From a virus (Duplodnaviria; Heunggongvirae; Uroviricota; Caudoviricetes), in IMG/VR virus record IMGVR_UViG_2740892440_000005, positions 1-40,270 of that record: a stretch of 40,270 bases of DNA; one strand, 5' to 3'. Both the position numbers and the translations under genes were made by a program. The stretch's first letter is position 1. Each line of letters begins with the position of its first letter. The notes under the pieces were generated by a model that saw only the letters and a list, made by a program, of their open reading frames with translations, searched no databases and was not told where the DNA came from. This document shows, one piece after another, positions 15,384 through 40,270 of this stretch.

Positions 15384-16098
15384 GTTAATAAATGGCAATG
15401 CCATCAAAATGACAAGCATTGAAATCGCTGAGTTGGTTGGTAAGCGTCATGACAATGTGAAACGTACCATCGAAACGCTGGCTAAAAATGGTGTTATCCG
15501 GCTTCCTCAAATTGAGGTTTCCGAAAGAATCAATAACTTAGGGTTCAATGTTCAGTACGAGCATTACGTCTTCGAAGGCGAACAAGGTAAGCGAGATAGT
15601 ATTGTTGTTGTTGCCCAGTTGTCGCCAGAGTTCACCGCTCGCCTTGTTGACCGTTGGCGAGAGCTTGAAGAAGCTGCGGTTAATATCCCAAAAACGCTAC
15701 CAGAAGCGTTGCGCCTTGCTGCTGACCTTGCTGAGCAGAAAATGCAACTGGAAAACCAGCTCGCAATTGCCGCACCTAAAGTTGAGTTTGCCGATCGCGT
15801 TGGCGAGGCCAGCGGAATTTTGATTGGAAACTTTGCAAAGGTTGTTGGAATTGGTCCAAACAAACTGTTTGCGTGGATGCGCGATCACAAAATCCTTATT
15901 GCTTCAGGTTCCCGGCGCAATGTACCAATGCAGGAATATATGGATCGCGGCTATTTCACCGTAAAAGAAACAGCGGTCAACACAAATCACGGAATACAGA
16001 TATCGTTCACCACAAAAATCACCGGGCGTGGCCAACAGTGGCTGACCAGAAAGCTGCTCGATAACGGAATGCTGAAAGTAACAGGGGAGGCTGCTTAA
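15376..16098 (+). CDS. Rha-family regulatory protein with C-terminal KilAC/antirepressor domain (240 aa)
   Basis: N-terminal Rha-like segment (TSIEIAELVGKRHDNVKRTIE) and C-terminal KilAC-like segment (GNFAKVVGIGPNKLFAWMRDHKIL). Confidence 0.75.
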   Translation: MNELINGNAIKMTSIEIAELVGKRHDNVKRTIETLAKNGVIRLPQIEVSERINNLGFNVQYEHYVFEGEQGKRDSIVVVAQLSPEFTARLVDRWRELEEAAVNIPKTLPEALRLAADLAEQKMQLENQLAIAAPKVEFADRVGEASGILIGNFAKVVGIGPNKLFAWMRDHKILIASGSRRNVPMQEYMDRGYFTVKETAVNTNHGIQISFTTKITGRGQQWLTRKLLDNGMLKVTGEAA

Positions 16099-16388
16099 TG
16101 GCTAATCTACGCAAAGAAGCGCGCGGCAGAGAATGCCAGGTACGTATTTACGGCGTATGCAATGGCAATCCTGAAACTACAGTTCTGGCACATTACCGGA
16201 TGGCTGGAATTTGCGGAACGGGGATGAAGCCTGACGACCTGATCGGCGCATGGGCTTGTAGCGACTGCCACGCGGAGATCGACCGACGCACCCATAACCT
16301 CGACAACAAAGACGCCAGACTTTACCACCTCGAAGGCGTGATCAGGACGCAGGCGATACTGCTGAAGGAGGGGAAGATTAAACCATGA
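16098..16388 (+). CDS. DUF1364 (YbcO-like) protein, putative nuclease (96 aa)
   Basis: MANLRKEARGRECQVRIYGVCNGNPETTVLAH...CSDCH matches my recollection of E. coli YbcO. Confidence 0.7.
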   Translation: MANLRKEARGRECQVRIYGVCNGNPETTVLAHYRMAGICGTGMKPDDLIGAWACSDCHAEIDRRTHNLDNKDARLYHLEGVIRTQAILLKEGKIKP

Positions 16389-31687: not shown

Positions 31688-33076
31688 ATGGCTACTTGGC
31701 AAGGATCAAATGGCGGATTGTTAGCTGGTATCGGCGGCGTCAACTCAAACGCTCCGAGCGTAAATGACATCGGCAATACGCTTCAGTTTATCAGGCAGAA
31801 CAATGATATTGAGCGTTCAGGCGCTAACAATGTTGGGCTGACTGCTTTGCAAGGCCTTTCAGGTATTGCGGGGGTGTTTCAGCAGGAAAAGCAGGCTCAG
31901 CGGCAGAAAGAATTTCAGCAGGCATACGCTAATGCTTATGCGTCTGGTGATCGCGGTGCTTTGCGTCAGTTGGCTACTCAATATCCAGACCAGATTGAAT
32001 CCGTTCGTAAAGGCATGGGATTCATTGATGAAGATCAGCGTAATTCTATCGGCACCTTAGCGGCTGGCGCACGCCTTGCGTCATCGTCTCCAGAAGCAAT
32101 GCAATCATGGCTGCAAAACAACGCCAAGGAACTGACTCGCGTCGGTGTTGACCCTAACAGCGTTGCTCAGATGTATCAGCAGAACCCTTCAGGATTTGGT
32201 GAGTTTGTTGATCACCTCGGAATGGCTGCTCTTGGTCCGATTGATTACTTCAATGTTCAGGACAAGATGGCTGGTCGTGAGATTGACAGAGGCAGACTGG
32301 CAGAGACAATCCGCAGCAATCAGGCCGGAGAGGCGCTAACAGCACGAGGTCAGAGCATCACGATGCGCGGTCAGGATTTATCTGCTTCTACTGCGCGACG
32401 CGGGCAGGATTTGGCAATGCAGCGAGCGTCAACAAGAGGAACCGCTGGGAATGATGAGCGTACAGTTCAGTTATCAGATGGCAGAACTGTAACGGTAGGC
32501 GGGAAGCTTCACGGCGCTGGGGCTAATGCGTTCTACGAAGGCATCGACAACGAGGGGAATATGGTTCGCGTTCCTGCCAGTTCAATCGCAGCGCCTGCAA
32601 CATCGTCTGCATCAGCACAAAACTATGCCATGAAGAAGGATATCGACGCGATCGCAAATGCAGACGCTTCTGCTCTCGATTTCATGACAGGAATGACAGG
32701 CGGTGCAGGTAATCCAGCAATTGGTGCTGATGTTCGCAGCCGATTAACAGGAAAAGAGCAGCGCCAGTTATATAACTCAGCACAACGTATTCAGGGCAGA
32801 ATGCAGAATCAGGGTGTGGCGGCAGCAAGGGACATGGGTGCCAGTGGTATTAACACCGTTGCAGAAGCGAAGATGTATTTTCAGGGGATGCCGCAGGTTG
32901 ACTATTCGAGCCCGGAGGCTATGCAGCAGTCGATTCGTGAGATTCAGGAATACACCAACAATTACAACCAACAATATAACGTTAATGTTGGTAAATCTCA
33001 GCGGAAGCAATCTCAACCTGCACAGGTATCACAGCCAGCAGCCAGCAGTAACTTTTCTTCACTATGGGGTGATTAA
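31688..33076 (+). CDS. Ejection protein, P22 gp20-type (462 aa)
   Basis: Position and size in the conserved 7-20-16 order. Confidence 0.75.
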
Positions 33077-35073
33077 TGGCTAAAGCATGGAAAGATGTTA
33101 TCGCCTCTCCACAGTATCAGGCGTTAGCACCAGAACAAAAAGCGCAGGCTCAGGAGCAATACTTCAATGAAGTCGTTGCCCCGCAAGCTGGAGAAAATGC
33201 AGAGCAGGCTAAGCAAGCTTTCTATGCTGCCTATCCATTGCCATCTGTGCAGCCAGTGGAGACACAACAACCAGTATCACAGCAACAACCACAGCAAAGT
33301 GGATTTATGTCTGATCTTGGTGAAGCAGTAAAAGAGACTGGTCGCGGACTGGTGCAGGCTGGCGTGAACGTGGCAAACATACCTGCATCAGTTGCCGATG
33401 CTGTAACAAGCGCGGCGGCTTGGGCTGGCGGTAAACTCGGTATTGGCGATGGTACATATCAACCAGCACCACGAGTAACAACGCAGGGATTAGAGCAGGA
33501 CTTTGGCCTTCAGCAAGGTGCGCTGACTCCACAAACGACAGAGGGAAGGGTATTTGCTGAAGCATTGCCTTACCTCACTCCTGCTGGCATTGAGAGAGCG
33601 GCGGTACAGGCACCAACACTTGCTGGTCGAATTGCTCAGGGGGCAACTCGCCTTCTCGCAGAAAACGCAGTTGGATCACTTGCTGCAAACAGTATGAAAG
33701 ATGATGCGGAAGCACTCGCTACCGATTTAGGTGTTGGCGTTCTGGCAGGCGGCGCTATTAACGCTGCTGGACGTGGATTAGGTGCTGCTTATCGTGGCGT
33801 TCGCGGTGCTATTGCGCCAGAAACGCAGCAAGCTATCAGATTTGCAGAGCGTGAAGGAGTTCCTCTGCACACCACAGACCTGTTACAACCCACTTCCCGC
33901 GTCGGAAAAATGGCGCAGACTACAGCAGAAAATATCCCCATGGCTGGCACAAGCGGAATGAGAGCAACACAACAGGAAGCGAGAAGCCAGTTGGTACAGA
34001 GATTTGCCGATAAATTCGGTGAGTACGATCCAGCGGTTGTTATTGACAGCCTTAAAGCGAAAACATCAGGAATTCGTCGTGCTGCCGGTAATCGACTGGA
34101 GCAGGTTCAGAATGCTATGGCTGGAGTAAACATTCAGCCTGTGCGAGCAATTCAGCAGATTGATACTGAGATATCTAACCTGCAGAAGCTTGGTAAGGTC
34201 GCTGATAACGAGACGATTTCAAAACTTCAATCCTATCGTGATGAGCTTATTCGCAATGCTGGTCCTGATGGTCCGGTAAATCTGGATTTGAAGCAATTAA
34301 GCGATCTGCGCAGCCAGTTCAGAATGGACGTGAAGGGGGAACGACCAGTGTTACCAAACCGTTCCGATGCTGCCATTCAGCGCGTTTACAAGGCGATGAC
34401 AGACGATATCAATGGTGCCATTGGTCAGAATCTTGGCAATGATACTCTCCGTAAATATCAGCAGGCCAATGCCGTCTACGCTGACGAAGCGGCGAAACTA
34501 AAGAATACCAGGCTGAAGAATGTTCTCATGAAAGGCGACCTGACGCCGGAAGTTGTCAACAACATGCTATTCAGCAAGAACAAATCGGAAATTAAGACGC
34601 TGTATAACTCAGTTGGTCGTGTTGGCAGGGCGCAAATGCGCAATGGCATCATTGGAAAGGCGATGGAGAAATCTGGCGGATCCCCTGACCAGTTCCTTCG
34701 GCAGCTTAACATCCTGCAAAACCAGACTGGCATCACATTTAAGGGGCAGGACGCTGCTTATCTGAAAGGATTAAAAAACTATCTGCAATCCACGCAGCAG
34801 GCTGCAAAAGCGGCAGTAACAACACCCACAGGGCAGCAAACTATCCCGTTCATTATTGGGTATGGGACGGCAATGAACCCGGCGACAACTGGCGCAGCAG
34901 TAAGCTACGGACTTCTTACTCGCGCCTATGAGAGCGAGCTATTCAGAAATGCAATGCTCCGAATGGCAAACACCCCACGCGGATCGACAGCGTTTGAGAA
35001 AGCCATGCAGCAAGCGCAAAAAGCGATTAATGCACTGACGCAGGGTGCGAAGTCTGATTCGTTGTCAGAATAG
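33076..35073 (+). CDS. Ejection protein, P22 gp16-type (665 aa)
   Basis: Position and size in the conserved 7-20-16 order. Confidence 0.75.
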   Translation: MAKAWKDVIASPQYQALAPEQKAQAQEQYFNEVVAPQAGENAEQAKQAFYAAYPLPSVQPVETQQPVSQQQPQQSGFMSDLGEAVKETGRGLVQAGVNVANIPASVADAVTSAAAWAGGKLGIGDGTYQPAPRVTTQGLEQDFGLQQGALTPQTTEGRVFAEALPYLTPAGIERAAVQAPTLAGRIAQGATRLLAENAVGSLAANSMKDDAEALATDLGVGVLAGGAINAAGRGLGAAYRGVRGAIAPETQQAIRFAEREGVPLHTTDLLQPTSRVGKMAQTTAENIPMAGTSGMRATQQEARSQLVQRFADKFGEYDPAVVIDSLKAKTSGIRRAAGNRLEQVQNAMAGVNIQPVRAIQQIDTEISNLQKLGKVADNETISKLQSYRDELIRNAGPDGPVNLDLKQLSDLRSQFRMDVKGERPVLPNRSDAAIQRVYKAMTDDINGAIGQNLGNDTLRKYQQANAVYADEAAKLKNTRLKNVLMKGDLTPEVVNNMLFSKNKSEIKTLYNSVGRVGRAQMRNGIIGKAMEKSGGSPDQFLRQLNILQNQTGITFKGQDAAYLKGLKNYLQSTQQAAKAAVTTPTGQQTIPFIIGYGTAMNPATTGAAVSYGLLTRAYESELFRNAMLRMANTPRGSTAFEKAMQQAQKAINALTQGAKSDSLSE

Positions 35074-35280
35074 CCTTTCAAACACCAGGAACGTGCAAAA
35101 ACCAAATATGTAGAACGCGAGGTTTATCGTATCCCTCTGCATAGGCGATACCTTTGCTGATTGTTATCTGATGTTACTGCTACTGTTGCATGTTACCGTG
35201 TTTCCAAAACCTGAATTGCAGTTTGTATATGTGTCAACGCGTGTTGGGTAAGGTTGAGTTATAACAGGCTGGCGCGCTTT

Positions 35281-35538
35281 TTACTCGATCGCTTGCATTG
35301 TGTTTACAGCCTGATAATTCAATAAAGCCTGCTGGAATGCTTGGCTTTGTGCTATTTGTTGGGCTTGTTCTTGGCTTTGTAATTGAACATAAAGATTCTG
35401 AAGCTCAAGTCTTGCCTGTGCGTCACTTATCTTGCCTTCATCGACACCTTGCCCGAGCATCTTTGCAGCAAGGACATACAGCTTAGGTGTTGGTGCTGAT
35501 GCCATGCGTGAGTCGTTCTTCACACTGGCATCAAGCAA
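35281..35538 (-). CDS. Gln/Ala-rich coiled-coil ORF (85 aa from TTG, 74 aa from ATG), possibly the displaced C-terminus of the upstream lipoprotein
   Basis: No convincing RBS; begins 18 nt inside the lipoprotein ORF in another frame. Confidence 0.35.
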   Translation of the reverse strand: MLDASVKNDSRMASAPTPKLYVLAAKMLGQGVDEGKISDAQARLELQNLYVQLQSQEQAQQIAQSQAFQQALLNYQAVNTMQAIE

Positions 35539-35648
35539 TTAGCCATATCGCTAAGCTTTTGATAGCGTTGTTCGCAACTTGCTTGATAGTCACTTACTTT
35601 TGCGCATCCAACCAGCAGAAGCGGGATAATTAACAGTGATTTTTTCAT
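35520..35648 (-). CDS. Short lipoprotein (42 aa) with signal peptide MKKSLLIIPLLLVGC
   Basis: Hand-translated; AAGGAGAG RBS 10 nt upstream; lipobox LLVGC; ORF stops after only 27 mature residues. Confidence 0.45.
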   Translation of the reverse strand: MKKSLLIIPLLLVGCAKVSDYQASCEQRYQKLSDMANCLMPV

Positions 35649-35718
35649 ATGGTTAACTCTCCTTAGTTTTTCACAGGATAGCATGAAGGCAATGCCACTT
35701 TAGCCGGAAACTAGATTT

Positions 35719-35985
35719 CTATGTTTCCTTTTTATTATTGCTATACATGGTCTTAAGCGTTTCAAAAACCATTTTCTTAACCATATCAGATTGTTGTTCT
35801 GCCATACGCTCTGCATCGTCAATGTAAACGGATGCAGAGCTTTGTTTAGCCAACGATTCTTCAATCGCTGCAATTATCTCTGAGTTCAGCGATCTGTTAT
35901 TCATCTTCGCACGCTGCTTAATTTTCGCGTGGAGTTCATGCGGAAGTCTCAAGTGAAACTGCGCCTCGTCGTATTTGCTGTACAT
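35719..35985 (-). CDS. mnt: Mnt-like ribbon-helix-helix repressor (88 aa)
   Basis: ...FHLRLPHELHAKIKQRAKMNNRSLNSEIIAAIEESL...DDAERMAEQQSDMVKKMVFETLK parallels P22 Mnt. Confidence 0.75.
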   Translation of the reverse strand: MYSKYDEAQFHLRLPHELHAKIKQRAKMNNRSLNSEIIAAIEESLAKQSSASVYIDDAERMAEQQSDMVKKMVFETLKTMYSNNKKET

Positions 35986-36058
35986 CCTTGATGCCTCACC
36001 AGTTGGGTGGAATGGCATCGTAACCTACTGGATAAATACTCAATAGTACCATTTCGGT

Positions 36059-36081
36059 ATGCAATCACATCATGGTTGCAT
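36059..36081. promoter_or_regulatory. Palindrome ATGCAA-N11-TTGCAT between mnt and tailspike (candidate operator)
   Basis: Inverted repeat read directly in the divergent intergenic region. Confidence 0.3.
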
Positions 36082-36106
36082 CATATCATTCGTTTGGAGC
36101 AATGAA

Positions 36107-38584
36107 ATGCCAGATATCACCGCAAATGTTGTAGTGAGCATGCCTTCGCAACTCTTCACTATGGCCCGCTCTTTTAAAGCCGTAGCTAATGGCAAAATTT
36201 ATATCGGTAAAATTGACACTGACCCGGTAAATCCTGAAAACCGGATTCAGGTTTATGTAGAGAATGAAGACGGTTCTCACGTTCCTGTTTCTCAACCAAT
36301 CATCATTAACGCTGCCGGTTATCCGGTATATAACGGACGGATTGCCAAGTTCGTTACTGTGCAAGGGCATTCTATGGCTGTTTATGATGCGTATGGTGCA
36401 CAGCAGTTTTATTTCCCTAATGTACTGAAGTACGATCCAGATCAACTTCGACAAGATTTATCTATGGAGCATGGCTCCCTGTTGATTGGAGGGGTAATTG
36501 ATATATTTGATTCAGTTAAAAATTTAATAGACACATCCCCTGGCGGTGATAGGGTTATATATTGCCATGGTTTTTACAATAACGGTGATGGCGGTTGCGG
36601 AACGTGGATAAGAAAATCTGATTATGATGGTGGTGAATATACAGGTCTTCCCGTTATTTTGAATGGGAAAGTTATTATATTTACTAAAGACAGTCTTGCT
36701 TACGAGCTCCTTATTGAAGATGAGATAGATATAAGAAAACTAGGAGCAAATGAAGAGGAACCAATTGATTATGTATTTTCATTGGCTGCCGATGTATGTA
36801 GAATAAACAATATAGTTAACAAGATTGTTATATATGGCAAATATATCCATAAGAACCCTTTAATTATACCTCCTGGCGTTTTTGTAGATTACATAGATTA
36901 TGATTATTCATGGACTAAAAAAATCACAAATAATAAATCAGGACTACCAACATTAACTGGTTCATATGGCGGTGATCTTATTATGGATGTTGATGCATGC
37001 ATAATACTTGATCACGGATACGGGCACAGAATTGATAATTTCAACATAAAATGCGACGCACCAGTCAGCGTTGAACACGCTATCTATCATGGATTTACCA
37101 GAGAAACAAATATTGCACAGACCATAGGGAGAATTGGCGAGTCTGGATCAACTCTTAAGTACAAGCCTATGCACGGTATAACCGCACAGCAGGGGTTTGT
37201 GCATAACTATGGCAATATAACAGCTTTTACGCAAAAAGGAACGTGGAACTATATCTTCAACACGGCTGGAACAGGATGTAACCTTATTAAGGTACGCCAG
37301 TCTTGGAACTATGATTCAACAGAGACGGCAATACGTTTCCAAGGTTCTACTAACGTATCTCTCGGTCAACAGTATTGCGAACAAACAAAGCAACGTATTT
37401 ATGAGTTTTATGGTTGTACAGGTGGGGTTATTGATGTTCTTAGCATTGATAACCACGAATGCAATCAGGTCGCATCGGCCCTGTATACCAGAAACTCACA
37501 AATAACACTTGGAGCGCTTACTGTAAACGCAGTAACAGTTGCAACAGGCGTTTCTGCGAAATTCATTGAACATACAGTTGGTACTGGGATATACGGATGT
37601 TTGACAATCAATGGAATAACAGCAAGAACAATCCAGCTTAATGTCCCGAATCTGACAACAATTACAAAGGATAACGGAGGAGTTGGTAACAACTGTGTCA
37701 TTCGAGGAATGCCAATCCCGCCGATAGGCGCACTCGGTAATATAGGTGCAACAGATGCATCCACTGTTAGCCAAGAATCTGATACAGGTGTGGTGTCAAC
37801 GCCTCATTATCGTAGCGTTTCTTGTAGCTTTGGTTCGCAAGCATCCGGTGCGAGATCATCGGTAATTGATAGTTTTAGCTGCCATGCTGCCACAGAAGGT
37901 TCTACAGTTATCTCCAGCACAATAACCAAGTCGGCTGAGTCTTTCGAGGTCTGTGGAGGATATGGCGGAACAACTGTAGGCAACCCACTAACAGGAAATA
38001 GAAAGTGGTCCATATCTTCTTTGTACGGGACGATCAAAGCATCTGGAGCAATAACTAATGGGGCCAGTTTTGCTGATTATGCTGAGTACTTTGAGAACGC
38101 AGAATTGGGAGTTATTCCTCTTGGTACGCTTGTAGACCTAATTGGTGACAAGGTGGCGCCAGCTAATGGTGATGATTTTGTTGGCGTTGTTTCTGGAACT
38201 GCTGGTGTAATATTAAACTCAGCATCACTTGTATGGTCAGGCAAGTATTTGACTGGTGATCACGGAGAGCCAATCTATGAATACATAGATGGAGTGAAGG
38301 TTAGAAAAATAAATCCTGATTACTCTCCTGAAATGGTACTTGCTGGGTTTGACGATGAAGGAAATGAAGTTTACACAGAAAATTATATACCACGTGAAGA
38401 AAGACCAGATGAATGGTCATGCGTAGGTCTTATTGGTCAGGTTTACGTTAACGTCTCTTATGCTGTAAAGATTGGTGATTGGCTTACCGCAATTAATGGC
38501 GTTGGTGTTCCATCTGAAACTAAGACACGGCTCAGAGTTATGTCAATAGTATCTGAAGGTATAGCTAAGTGTATTATAAAATAG
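36107..38584 (+). CDS. Tailspike: P22 gp9-type head-binding N-terminus, divergent AT-rich receptor-binding domain, C-terminal chaperone-like domain (825 aa)
   Basis: [43 protein letters not shown] matches P22 gp9 residues 1 to about 115; GGAG RBS; composition turns AT-rich from about 36470; ...[11 protein letters not shown]... near the C-terminus. Confidence 0.85.
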
Positions 38585-39265
38585 TCAGAAGTGTATTTTA
38601 TCAATATGCTAGTTTGACCGTAAATTTACTATTCCAGTCATTATAAATCATACACACAAGTCTTTGCGATGGATTGCAAGGCTTTGTGCTCTTCGATAGT
38701 GGTTAAGGTGGGTCACTCCACCTTTTCATCAAGCCAGTCCGCCCACCACTGCATCATTTCTCTGCGCTTAACGTAGTTGATGCATCACTATCACCCTGTA
38801 ATGGCTTATTACTGGTTTGCAGACAGGTAGGCATGAACATATACCTGCGCATGAAGATGGGACTAGTCCGGATGCGATATTTTTGGTGATCACGTACATC
38901 ATCAACGAAGCGCGTTATGGTGAGTTTGATGACTACCCGCTGAAGTGAAAATTGTGTTGTGTACCAAATTGCGTACCAAACTAAAATCACAAATCATGAA
39001 ACCCTTGCTCATGGCGGTTCTCAGGGGTGTTGCGCGTAATCGTGAAACAAAAAGGTAGATTGTTGCTTACCGTCATTCATCATTAGGTTAAATCCGTTAT
39101 TTCTGCTGTCTGCCAGAGTATCAAATATCACCGTACTAATCAGCTTTAGCGCCACAAGATCATGTCAGATAAAAATGAGAGGGTAGTCACATTTTCTTGC
39201 ACTTTATTCCAGCCAGTTCATAAGTATTTCCGTAAAAAGAACAGCTATTTGAAACTCCTGAGGGT

Positions 39266-40270
39266 TTGCTGTTGAAACGCCGACTTATTATTGCTGCTTC
39301 TTTGTTCGTTTTTAACTTATCGTCTGGTTTTGCGGCGGAAAACATTCCTTTTTCACCTCAGCCTCCAGAGATTCATGCCGGGTCCTGGGTACTGATGGAT
39401 TACACCACCGGACAGATCCTCACCGCGGGTAATGAGCATCAACAGCGCAATCCCGCCAGCCTGACAAAGCTGATGACGGGTTATGTCGTGGATCGCGCTA
39501 TCGATAGTCATCGCATTACGCCAGACGATATTGTCACCGTGGGGCGCGATGCGTGGGCGAAAGATAATCCGGTGTTTGTCGGTTCTTCACTGATGTTTTT
39601 GAAAGAGGGCGATCGCGTATCGGTACGTGATTTAAGCCGTGGTTTAATTGTGGATTCCGGAAATGACGCTTGTGTTGCACTGGCTGACTATATTGCCGGT
39701 GGGCAACGGCAGTTTGTTGAAATGATGAACAACTATGCCGAGAAGCTGCATCTCAAGGATACGCATTTTGAAACAGTGCATGGTCTGGATGCACCTGGCC
39801 AGCATAGCTCGGCTTATGATTTAGCTGTGCTTTCTCGCGCTATCATCCACGGCGAGCCCGAGTTTTATCATATGTACAGTGAGAAAAGCCTCACCTGGAA
39901 CGGTATCACCCAGCAAAACCGTAACGGGTTATTGTGGGATAAAACCATGAATGTTGACGGCCTGAAAACGGGTCATACTTCTGGTGCCGGGTTTAATCTC
40001 ATTGCTTCGGCTGTAGATGGGCAGCGTCGTCTCATTGCAGTGGTAATGGGTGCTGACAGCGCAAAAGGTCGTGAGGAAGAGGCAAGAAAATTACTGCGTT
40101 GGGGGCAACAAAACTTTACTACGGTGCAAATTTTGCACCGTGGGAAAAAGGTCGGTACGGAACGCATCTGGTATGGCGATAAAGAAAATATCGCCCTGGG
40201 AACGGAACAAGAGTTCTGGATGGTGCTACCGAAAGCCGAAATTCCACATATCAAAGCCAAATATACTTGA
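39266..40270 (+). CDS. dacD: D-alanyl-D-alanine carboxypeptidase DacD (PBP6b), 3' partial at window end
   Basis: MLLKRRLIIAASLFVFNLSSGFAAENIPF... matches my recollection of E. coli DacD; TTG start; ORF runs to the window edge. Confidence 0.9.
   Translation: MLLKRRLIIAASLFVFNLSSGFAAENIPFSPQPPEIHAGSWVLMDYTTGQILTAGNEHQQRNPASLTKLMTGYVVDRAIDSHRITPDDIVTVGRDAWAKDNPVFVGSSLMFLKEGDRVSVRDLSRGLIVDSGNDACVALADYIAGGQRQFVEMMNNYAEKLHLKDTHFETVHGLDAPGQHSSAYDLAVLSRAIIHGEPEFYHMYSEKSLTWNGITQQNRNGLLWDKTMNVDGLKTGHTSGAGFNLIASAVDGQRRLIAVVMGADSAKGREEEARKLLRWGQQNFTTVQILHRGKKVGTERIWYGDKENIALGTEQEFWMVLPKAEIPHIKAKYT

Follow-up and report, generated by a model that had tools for sequence, protein, structure and literature searches.

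An ant moron with an intact mnt gene and a decayed lipoprotein gene in front of the tailspike gene of a P22-like prophage

The 1-kb region upstream of the tailspike gene raises three connected questions: how much of the P22 immI locus is left in it, whether two adjacent open reading frames (ORFs) read leftward represent two genes or the halves of one, and whether the palindrome in front of the tailspike gene has anything to do with the Mnt repressor. The window (the whole stretch of viral DNA that was analysed, 40,270 nucleotides) is a P22-like (Lederbergvirus) prophage, and the interval between its gene-16 homologue and its tailspike gene is the "ant moron", a name given to this interval by Villafane et al. 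(2008; PMC2629481), who described ten types in sixteen genomes, including that of E. coli B7A. The original prediction, made from the letters of the window, was of an immI-like locus at 35281-36106 with a Mnt homologue, a 42-codon lipoprotein ORF, a Gln/Ala-rich ORF and a palindrome. All of these elements are present in the sequence, but the left end of the locus was set too far to the right; the broken gene runs 117 bp further, to position 35164. The explanation developed below is that the interval is a two-gene ant moron in which mnt is intact and the lipoprotein gene is dead, and that the palindrome is a leader RNA hairpin and not a Mnt site. Taken as a whole we consider this explanation likely.

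The interval between the ejection gene and the tailspike gene

The left border of the ant moron is a P22 gene-16-type DNA ejection protein gene (33076..35073, + strand, 665 aa), which is annotated in relatives as a DNA transfer protein and is preceded by a gp20-type gene at 31688-33076 (Pfam Inj_translocase, the gp20 family). On the right lies the tailspike gene (36107..38584, + strand, 825 aa, with GGAG at 36096-36099), whose product carries a Pfam Head_binding domain at residues 1-113 (E 8e-66) and, at its C-terminus, the autoproteolytic domain Peptidase_G2 (residues 599-816). The stretch between the two is read on the opposite strand: mnt and the lipoprotein gene both run leftward, against the late operon, with gaps of 70 bp from the lipoprotein ORF to mnt and of 121 bp from mnt to the tailspike gene. 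The neighbouring late genes form an unbroken, tightly packed chain of ORFs of ~14 kb. Non-morphogenetic genes thus lie between the gene-16 and gene-9 homologues, and the contents of the interval vary between phages, as seen among VSe13, 720R6, Sf101, HS, Brookers and the Y. ruckeri and Morganella prophages, which is what defines an ant moron.

The genes arc and ant and the sar RNA are absent here, and a functional immI (mnt-arc-ant) locus is not present. P22 Ant, Arc, SieA and orf59a and three other antirepressor-like proteins found no tblastn match in the whole 40-kb window, no Rfam family, the sar antisense RNA included, was matched within 34900-36400, and the 121-bp spacer in front of the tailspike gene leaves no room for arc and ant. 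The predicted reduction of an immI-like locus to mnt is borne out by the lack of arc and ant matches and of space in the gaps. In DNA searches the same region was found in 439 E. coli chromosomal records and a few phages. E. coli B7A matches it with 100% coverage and 96.9% identity, and the two-gene form (mnt plus the lipoprotein gene) is already known from B7A, with over 100 further complete E. coli genomes having it too.

The broken lipoprotein gene and its intact relatives

The first of the two leftward ORFs (35520..35648, - strand) opens with ATG at 35648, 8 nt downstream of the Shine-Dalgarno sequence AAGGAGAG at 35657-35664, and stops at 35520-35522. Its 42 codons specify the signal peptide MKKSLLIIPLLLVG, Cys15 of the lipobox LVGC, and 27 further residues. 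The Gln/Ala-rich ORF in the -1 frame extends from 35538 (85 aa) or from an ATG at 35505 (74 aa) to 35281, also on the - strand. Both are fragments of a pseudogene at 35164..35648 (- strand), derived from a 161-aa lipoprotein moron gene (phrog_6067, WP_000749291 family) and aligning from end to end with the 486-nt genes of ZY22049, VSe13 and 720R6. E. coli ZY22049 and the phages VSe13, 720R6 and Gally have uninterrupted 486-nt versions that encode 161 aa; the protein, WP_000749291.1, is annotated as a "hypothetical protein". Of the two structures proposed originally, a single lipoprotein gene of about 120 aa broken by a frameshift or a coupled gene pair, these relatives therefore uphold the former and rule out a conserved pair, although the intact protein is considerably longer than was estimated.

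Two lesions separate the window gene from its intact form. Lesion 1 is the loss of one C from TGC CTT in codons 38-39 (35534..35535, - strand), which shifts the reading frame, and lesion 2 is a CAA to TAA nonsense change in codon 123 (35281..35283, - strand), which ends the 74/85-aa ORF; the predicted frameshift is real, but it is not the sole lesion. Restoring the deleted base gives the ZY22049 protein with no change other than the stop at codon 123, and the repaired gene differs from that of ZY22049 at three positions, two of them disabling and the third synonymous. Short lesion-centred queries detected lesion 1 in none of 122, and lesion 2 in none of 174, complete E. coli genomes carrying the respective segment (all matched at 98.4%, none exactly), and both lesions are therefore private to this genome. 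Public genomes hold other broken alleles of the lipoprotein gene (frameshifts, fusions and truncations), so that decay of this gene recurs. In this genome the gene is dead and at most a 42-residue prolipoprotein stub is left. Lesion 1, being a 1-nt indel in a CC run, could if taken alone be a sequencing error.

The lesions are taken as real because the ~14-kb chain of late-gene ORFs is unbroken. That both are sequencing or assembly errors, and that the gene is intact in the organism, is an unlikely reading: the loss of a single base from a CC dinucleotide and the absence of both lesions from any other genome would agree with it, but lesion 2 is a substitution, atypical of indel error, the rest of the late region is without broken ORFs, and truncated or frameshifted alleles elsewhere in public genomes point to recurrent decay. 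Hardly credible at all is the idea of a gene pair coupled in translation, or of two ORFs read as one through programmed -1 frameshifting. The 42-codon ORF does overlap the next one by 19 nt and the shift required is indeed -1, yet every relative has one continuous ORF with one extra base, the 19-nt overlap is devoid of an X XXY YYZ slippery site, the downstream nonsense codon would in any case truncate the product at residue 122, and dN/dS across the junction is ~0.04 in relatives. We thus retain the single gene inactivated by two mutations.

Among the intact orthologues dN/dS is 0.037-0.047, and the gene is therefore a real, constrained protein gene under strong purifying selection. A word-indexed search gave 94 homologues of 153-162 aa, all from Enterobacterales (Escherichia, Citrobacter, Serratia, Cronobacter, Klebsiella aerogenes, Pectobacterium, Yersinia, Morganella, Providencia, Tatumella and others). 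In every context examined the gene is flanked by homologues of gp16 and of the tailspike gene and is read from the strand opposite to theirs. Its start is 17 nt beyond mnt in Proteus phage Brookers, while in the Yersinia ruckeri and Morganella prophages it occurs alone, without mnt, and is therefore an independent moron gene. An exhaustive profile search extended the family to 242 representatives, mostly lipoproteins of ~129 aa that have the same helical domain at the N-terminus and Cys pair at the C-terminus but no Gln-rich insert; Pfam gave no family for ten of these representatives, and the one member with an informative contig is in a chromosomal, non-phage context.

In the alignment of 29 homologues, Cys15 of the lipobox is invariant, Gly14 is conserved in at least 90% and position +2 is Ala; four further Cys are invariant, two of them in the N-terminal domain, and a variable Gln-rich segment is followed by a C-terminal T-x-C...G-x...C-x-S motif. 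A lipoprotein is predicted from the signal peptide and lipobox, MKKSLLIIPLLLVG-C; by the +2 rule, the Ala at +2 would sort the intact protein to the outer membrane, and the two conserved Cys pairs suggest periplasmic disulfides. The predicted architecture of the mature protein (147 aa) comprises a helical bundle at residues 18-96, a Gln-rich helix and a small C-terminal hairpin, in a fold model of moderate confidence (pLDDT 62.6) with no specific structural match.

Searches of Pfam with both fragments and the 29 full-length members, and of NCBIfam, PADLOC and PDB profiles, returned nothing meaningful. The name "GspK", which one source gives to a Cronobacter homologue, was rejected: it stems from the Gln-rich helix, and the NCBIfam score is 18.9 bits against a cut-off of 130. 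The Braun lipoprotein Lpp forms a trimeric coiled coil of ~58 residues and has a C-terminal Lys for murein attachment. The suggested likeness to Lpp was not sustained, there being no Lpp family among the Pfam matches of the 29 members at E <= 1 and the C-terminus of the mature protein being Arg/Tyr after a disulfide-type Cys pair, not Lys.

The intact protein may conceivably be an envelope factor expressed by the prophage that, within the periplasm, interferes with superinfecting phages of the P22 type; this proposal is a tentative one, the position of the gene being its sole basis. Somewhat more speculative still is the specific form of it, in which the phrog_6067 lipoprotein would be a new superinfection-exclusion factor of P22-like prophages, unrelated to SieA, attached to the outer membrane on the side of the periplasm, where it would block the ejection conduit or a receptor step of related phages. 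If true, the lipoprotein would prevent the gp7/gp20/gp16 ejection conduit from assembling or passing, or would block a secondary receptor step, it would be the periplasmic counterpart of the inner-membrane SieA at the same locus, and the repeated decay of its gene would reflect a cost or a changing phage pressure. A strongly constrained lipoprotein family at the sieA position in many enterobacterial P22-like prophages is in any event a candidate for SieA-type exclusion assays.

Mnt, its candidate operator and the tailspike-leader hairpin

The mnt gene (35719..35985, - strand) is intact and encodes an 88-aa Mnt-type ribbon-helix-helix repressor with the Pfam domains Arc and Repressor_Mnt. In the minus-strand ORF 35719..36018, Arc is matched with E 1.1e-14 (54.4 bits, cut-off 20.4) and Repressor_Mnt, the C-terminal tetramerisation helix, with E 3.9e-12 (46.1 bits, cut-off 20.9). 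Translation most likely begins at the ATG of position 35985, which aligns with the start of P22 Mnt and with its Shine-Dalgarno sequence. A start at 36018, giving 99 aa, was rejected: in relatives the 11-codon extension has only non-synonymous changes or a frame break. The protein is identical to Mnt of ZY22049. The first 48 codons differ from the HS allele by 22 synonymous and 10 non-synonymous changes, and the Mnt DNA-binding domain is therefore under selection even without ant.

The P22 mnt operator, A-GGTCC-ACGGT-GGACC-T, is adjacent to a conserved CTCAAT, the -35 of Pmnt. At the homologous position there is A-AGACC-ACAGT-GGTCT-C in 720R6, AAGACC-ACCGT-GGTCTT in phage L and A-GTACC-ATTTC-GGTAT-G in the window (36045..36061), and all four dyads fit xxxCC-N5-GGxxx. 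The form GTACC-N5-GGTAT is kept in all five genomes with a matching Mnt N-terminus (the window, P276M, ETEC1748, HS and VSe13), the match extending as far as the end of the beta-strand (MYSKYDEAQFHLRL) and residue 15 being either Pro or Thr, while in P22, 720R6 and L, where the recognition residues differ, other dyads of the general form are found. The dyad thus covaries with the DNA-binding residues of Mnt, and on this ground the probable operator is assigned to 36045-36061; from the comparison, Mnt most likely binds there. The candidate operator is only partly symmetric (TACC-N5-GGTA). A second copy of it was not found near the antirepressor-like genes of VSe13 or HS.

Weak divergent promoter-like hexamers are predicted at the positions of P22 Pant and Pmnt (36012..36043). 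The rightward pair, ATGGCA-17-AATACT (36012-36040), has 8 of 12 consensus bases as compared with 11 of 12 in the P22 original, and the leftward pair, TTGAGT-15-TACGAT (36043-36017), has 8 of 12 as compared with 10 of 12. A standard scan called no + strand promoter at the locus, and the same scan recovers Pant and Pmnt of P22. Because the candidate operator overlies these Pant/Pmnt remnants at the P22 operator position, Mnt would be expected at least to autoregulate.

The palindrome ATGCAATCA-N5-TGGTTGCAT (36059..36081, + strand) abuts the candidate operator and ends 25 nt before the tailspike ATG. Its arms are complementary at 8 of 9 positions as DNA and at all nine as RNA with one U.G pair, giving a hairpin of 9 bp with a 5-nt loop in the tailspike-sense RNA (-8.5 kcal/mol). 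The DNA inverted repeat is weakly beyond chance (an equal repeat arose in 8.7% of shuffles of the 121-bp spacer), the score of the RNA hairpin was reached by 0.5% of shuffles of the 75-nt leader, and folding of the whole spacer as RNA gave z-scores of -0.5 to -1.5, which are not significant. No further copies beyond chance were found in the window, including the immC region. In P276M, ETEC1748, HS and VSe13 the palindrome is missing and a P22-type gene-9 leader hairpin, CCGUAGC-CAU-GCUGCGG, is present instead.

For each of 16 tailspike genes the preceding 75 nt were scanned, with shuffles, for the hairpin with the best perfect stem. The hairpin ended 23-27 nt before the ATG in 12 of the 16 leaders, several of which are related by descent: the window, P22, epsilon34, P276M, ETEC1748, HS, VSe13, 720R6, Brookers, the Y. 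ruckeri and Morganella prophages, and Sf6. Among these 12 the stem sequences are of six or more unrelated kinds. G.U pairs, present in most of the stems, make 9 of 11 variants more stable as tailspike-sense RNA. The hairpin is found in Sf6, which lacks a moron, and in the Yersinia and Morganella prophages, which lack mnt; it is therefore independent of Mnt. RNAalifold on a MAFFT alignment of 11 leaders yielded no consensus structure, because stems and loops of differing length were misaligned. A search for intrinsic terminators gave none in 35050-36200, and CATATCATTCG, which comes after the stem, has no U run, so that the hairpin is not an intrinsic terminator. The leader hairpin is not annotated in the P22 and L records. 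On this positional evidence the palindrome is probably the form that a tailspike-leader RNA hairpin of P22-like phages takes in this phage, and such a hairpin would probably act on the stability, processing or translation of the tailspike mRNA.

Two roles for Mnt in front of the tailspike gene have to be weighed against this assignment. In the original prediction the palindrome, seen as ATGCAA-N11-TTGCAT, was itself the Mnt site through which tailspike transcription might be controlled. The dyad does stand between mnt and the tailspike gene and is the sole such site in the window, but we consider it very improbable as an operator: P276M, ETEC1748, HS and VSe13 agree with the window in the DNA-binding residues of Mnt and share GTACC-N5-GGTAT and not the palindrome, the spacing of its arms misfits the xxxCC-N5-GGxxx of the P22, 720R6 and L operators, phages devoid of mnt have equivalent hairpins, and its one mismatched position forms a U.G pair, which RNA accepts and a DNA dyad does not. 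Control of the tailspike gene by Mnt bound at 36045-36061, through repression of a residual Pant-type promoter or a block to upstream late transcripts, has more in its favour and is possible, if doubtful. With the loss of arc and ant the operator comes to lie ~45 nt upstream of the tailspike start, the hexamers ATGGCA-17-AATACT are exactly at the Pant position, mnt is under purifying selection despite having no ant to control, and read-through into gene 9 may, as has been noted, be influenced by the moron and its repressors (PMC2629481). Against it, the rightward hexamers agree with the consensus at 8 of 12 positions only, they are not kept in ETEC1748, VSe13 and HS despite the same Mnt DNA-binding region, and the scan that recovers Pant and Pmnt of P22 finds no + strand promoter. 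We therefore keep to the reading in which the operator is the dyad at 36045-36061 and the palindrome is an RNA element of the tailspike leader.

The persistence of mnt under selection in many prophages without ant keeps alive the old question of what Mnt does there, and the operator assignment makes that role testable. The leader hairpin is a small, apparently unannotated feature that could bear on how tailspike dosage is set.

Comparison with known systems

T5 Llp, Cor of phi80 and N15, and Ltp of Streptococcus phage TP-J34 are phage-encoded exclusion lipoproteins, all of them small and phage-borne. To none of these, nor to Lpp, does the lipoprotein described here have a family-level match in Pfam, NCBIfam, PADLOC or PDB. 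The comparison with SieA of P22 is one of place: the lipoprotein gene has the same locus and orientation, its product is of similar length (161 vs 164 aa) and, like SieA, it is presumably expressed from the prophage. According to Leavitt et al. 2024 (PMC10883804), sieA is carried by 22 of the 66 P22-like phages that have been sequenced, and SieA is polytopic in the inner membrane. SieA has the motif FxRYPxEAxxFNK, whereas the protein here is a predicted lipoprotein with a cleavable signal peptide and a probable anchor in the outer membrane. The lipoprotein alignment lacks the motif, BLASTP produced no alignment between the two proteins at E <= 100, and they belong to different families (phrog_6067 vs phrog_7745).

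In common with P22 immI, the locus has a Mnt with both Pfam domains and a dyad at the operator position next to CTCAAT. It differs from immI in having no arc, ant or sar RNA, in promoters that are both much weaker by consensus, and in a different operator, with the Mnt recognition residues Q-F-H-L-R in place of H-F-N-F-R.

The closest likeness is to the published ant morons of B7A and of the mnt-only phages ST64T, ST104 and L, which have the same position between genes 16 and 9 and genes directed against the late operon. Versions with mnt only and a gene whose function is not known have been described (PMC2629481), and a comparable layout in phage L led to the question of whether mnt has a new function there or is a remnant (PMC8022706). 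The gene that accompanies mnt in ST64T and L, orf62, is another one and lies on the other strand; in Sf101 and IME10 mnt stands alone, with the same spacer as here. The architecture of the locus is thus already known and the pseudogene is an ordinary one, so that what the window adds is only a decayed copy: like the published forms it consists of mnt and one gene of unknown function, without arc, ant or sieA, and it differs from them in that this second gene has been inactivated by two private mutations.

Tailspike start codon and leader hairpin

The true start of the tailspike gene is at position 36107. The ATG that opens the palindrome ATGCAA-N11-TTGCAT shares the reading frame of the tailspike ORF (window 36059-36106), and a mechanical ORF call therefore gives a product of 841 aa; this longer ORF was rejected. 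The 36107 start is preceded at 7 nt by GGAG, and from it the Head_binding match runs from residue 1. Sixteen P22-like leaders were scanned, including that of the window (hairpin at 36059-36081), and in 12 of them an RNA hairpin was found with its 3' end 23-27 nt before the tailspike start codon. The loci considered for this hairpin include the window, P22, Sf6, Brookers, Y. ruckeri, Morganella, epsilon34 and L. The stems of the different types show no sequence kinship, and the G.U pairs within them favour the sense strand. Sf6, which is without the ant moron (the variable interval between the gene 16 and tailspike homologues), still has the leader hairpin. Neither the P22 record nor the L record annotates the hairpin, and Rfam holds no match to it.

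Gene flux in the ant moron

P22 carries two copies of AAAATTCACCGTAGCCA(C/T)GCT (record L005 1600-1720, corresponding to P22 record 16040-16160), the first shortly past the ant terminator, the second shortly ahead of gene 9; the pair encloses about 90 bp and looks like an insertion scar in the tailspike leader. The interval from the lipoprotein gene to mnt holds, in 720R6, a second predicted lipoprotein of 139 aa (MKRIIGVVAGAILLSGC..., record L003 3209-3628) not related to the 161-aa moron lipoprotein, and in VSe13 an antirepressor-like fragment of 96 aa (record L002 3143-3433); both are further cases of ant-moron flux. Lipoproteins of about 129 aa form a wider, unannotated family found outside Enterobacterales (profile-search representatives P0099-P0236; record L014), with a lipobox, a C-E...C helical domain and a T-x-C...C motif at the C-terminus. 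One or more members lie in a chromosomal, non-phage context, and the phage 161-aa lipoprotein gene may be derived from this family.

Integration site and the tailspike-to-att segment

The prophage is integrated in the 5' end of sbcB, adjoining dacD, whose start is at 39266. On the minus strand, 39021-39155 encodes the N-terminus of SbcB, MMNDGKQQSTFLFHDY, after which comes foreign sequence. The 13-bp att core CGTAATCGTGAAA (39037-39049) is the same as that reported for the att site of Sf101 and phage 2851 (PMC4159516). No intact gene was found in the approximately 450 bp from the tailspike stop to the att core (window 38585-39036). A minus-strand frame near 38715-38775 looks like an integrase remnant, encoding ...YVKRREMMQWWADWLDEKV, which we take to be the C-terminus of IntS-type integrases. 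The segment 38652-39300 was found again beside dacD, adjoining other elements, in 491 complete E. coli genomes. Sf101 carries oacB at the position where the window phage has no O-antigen modification gene.
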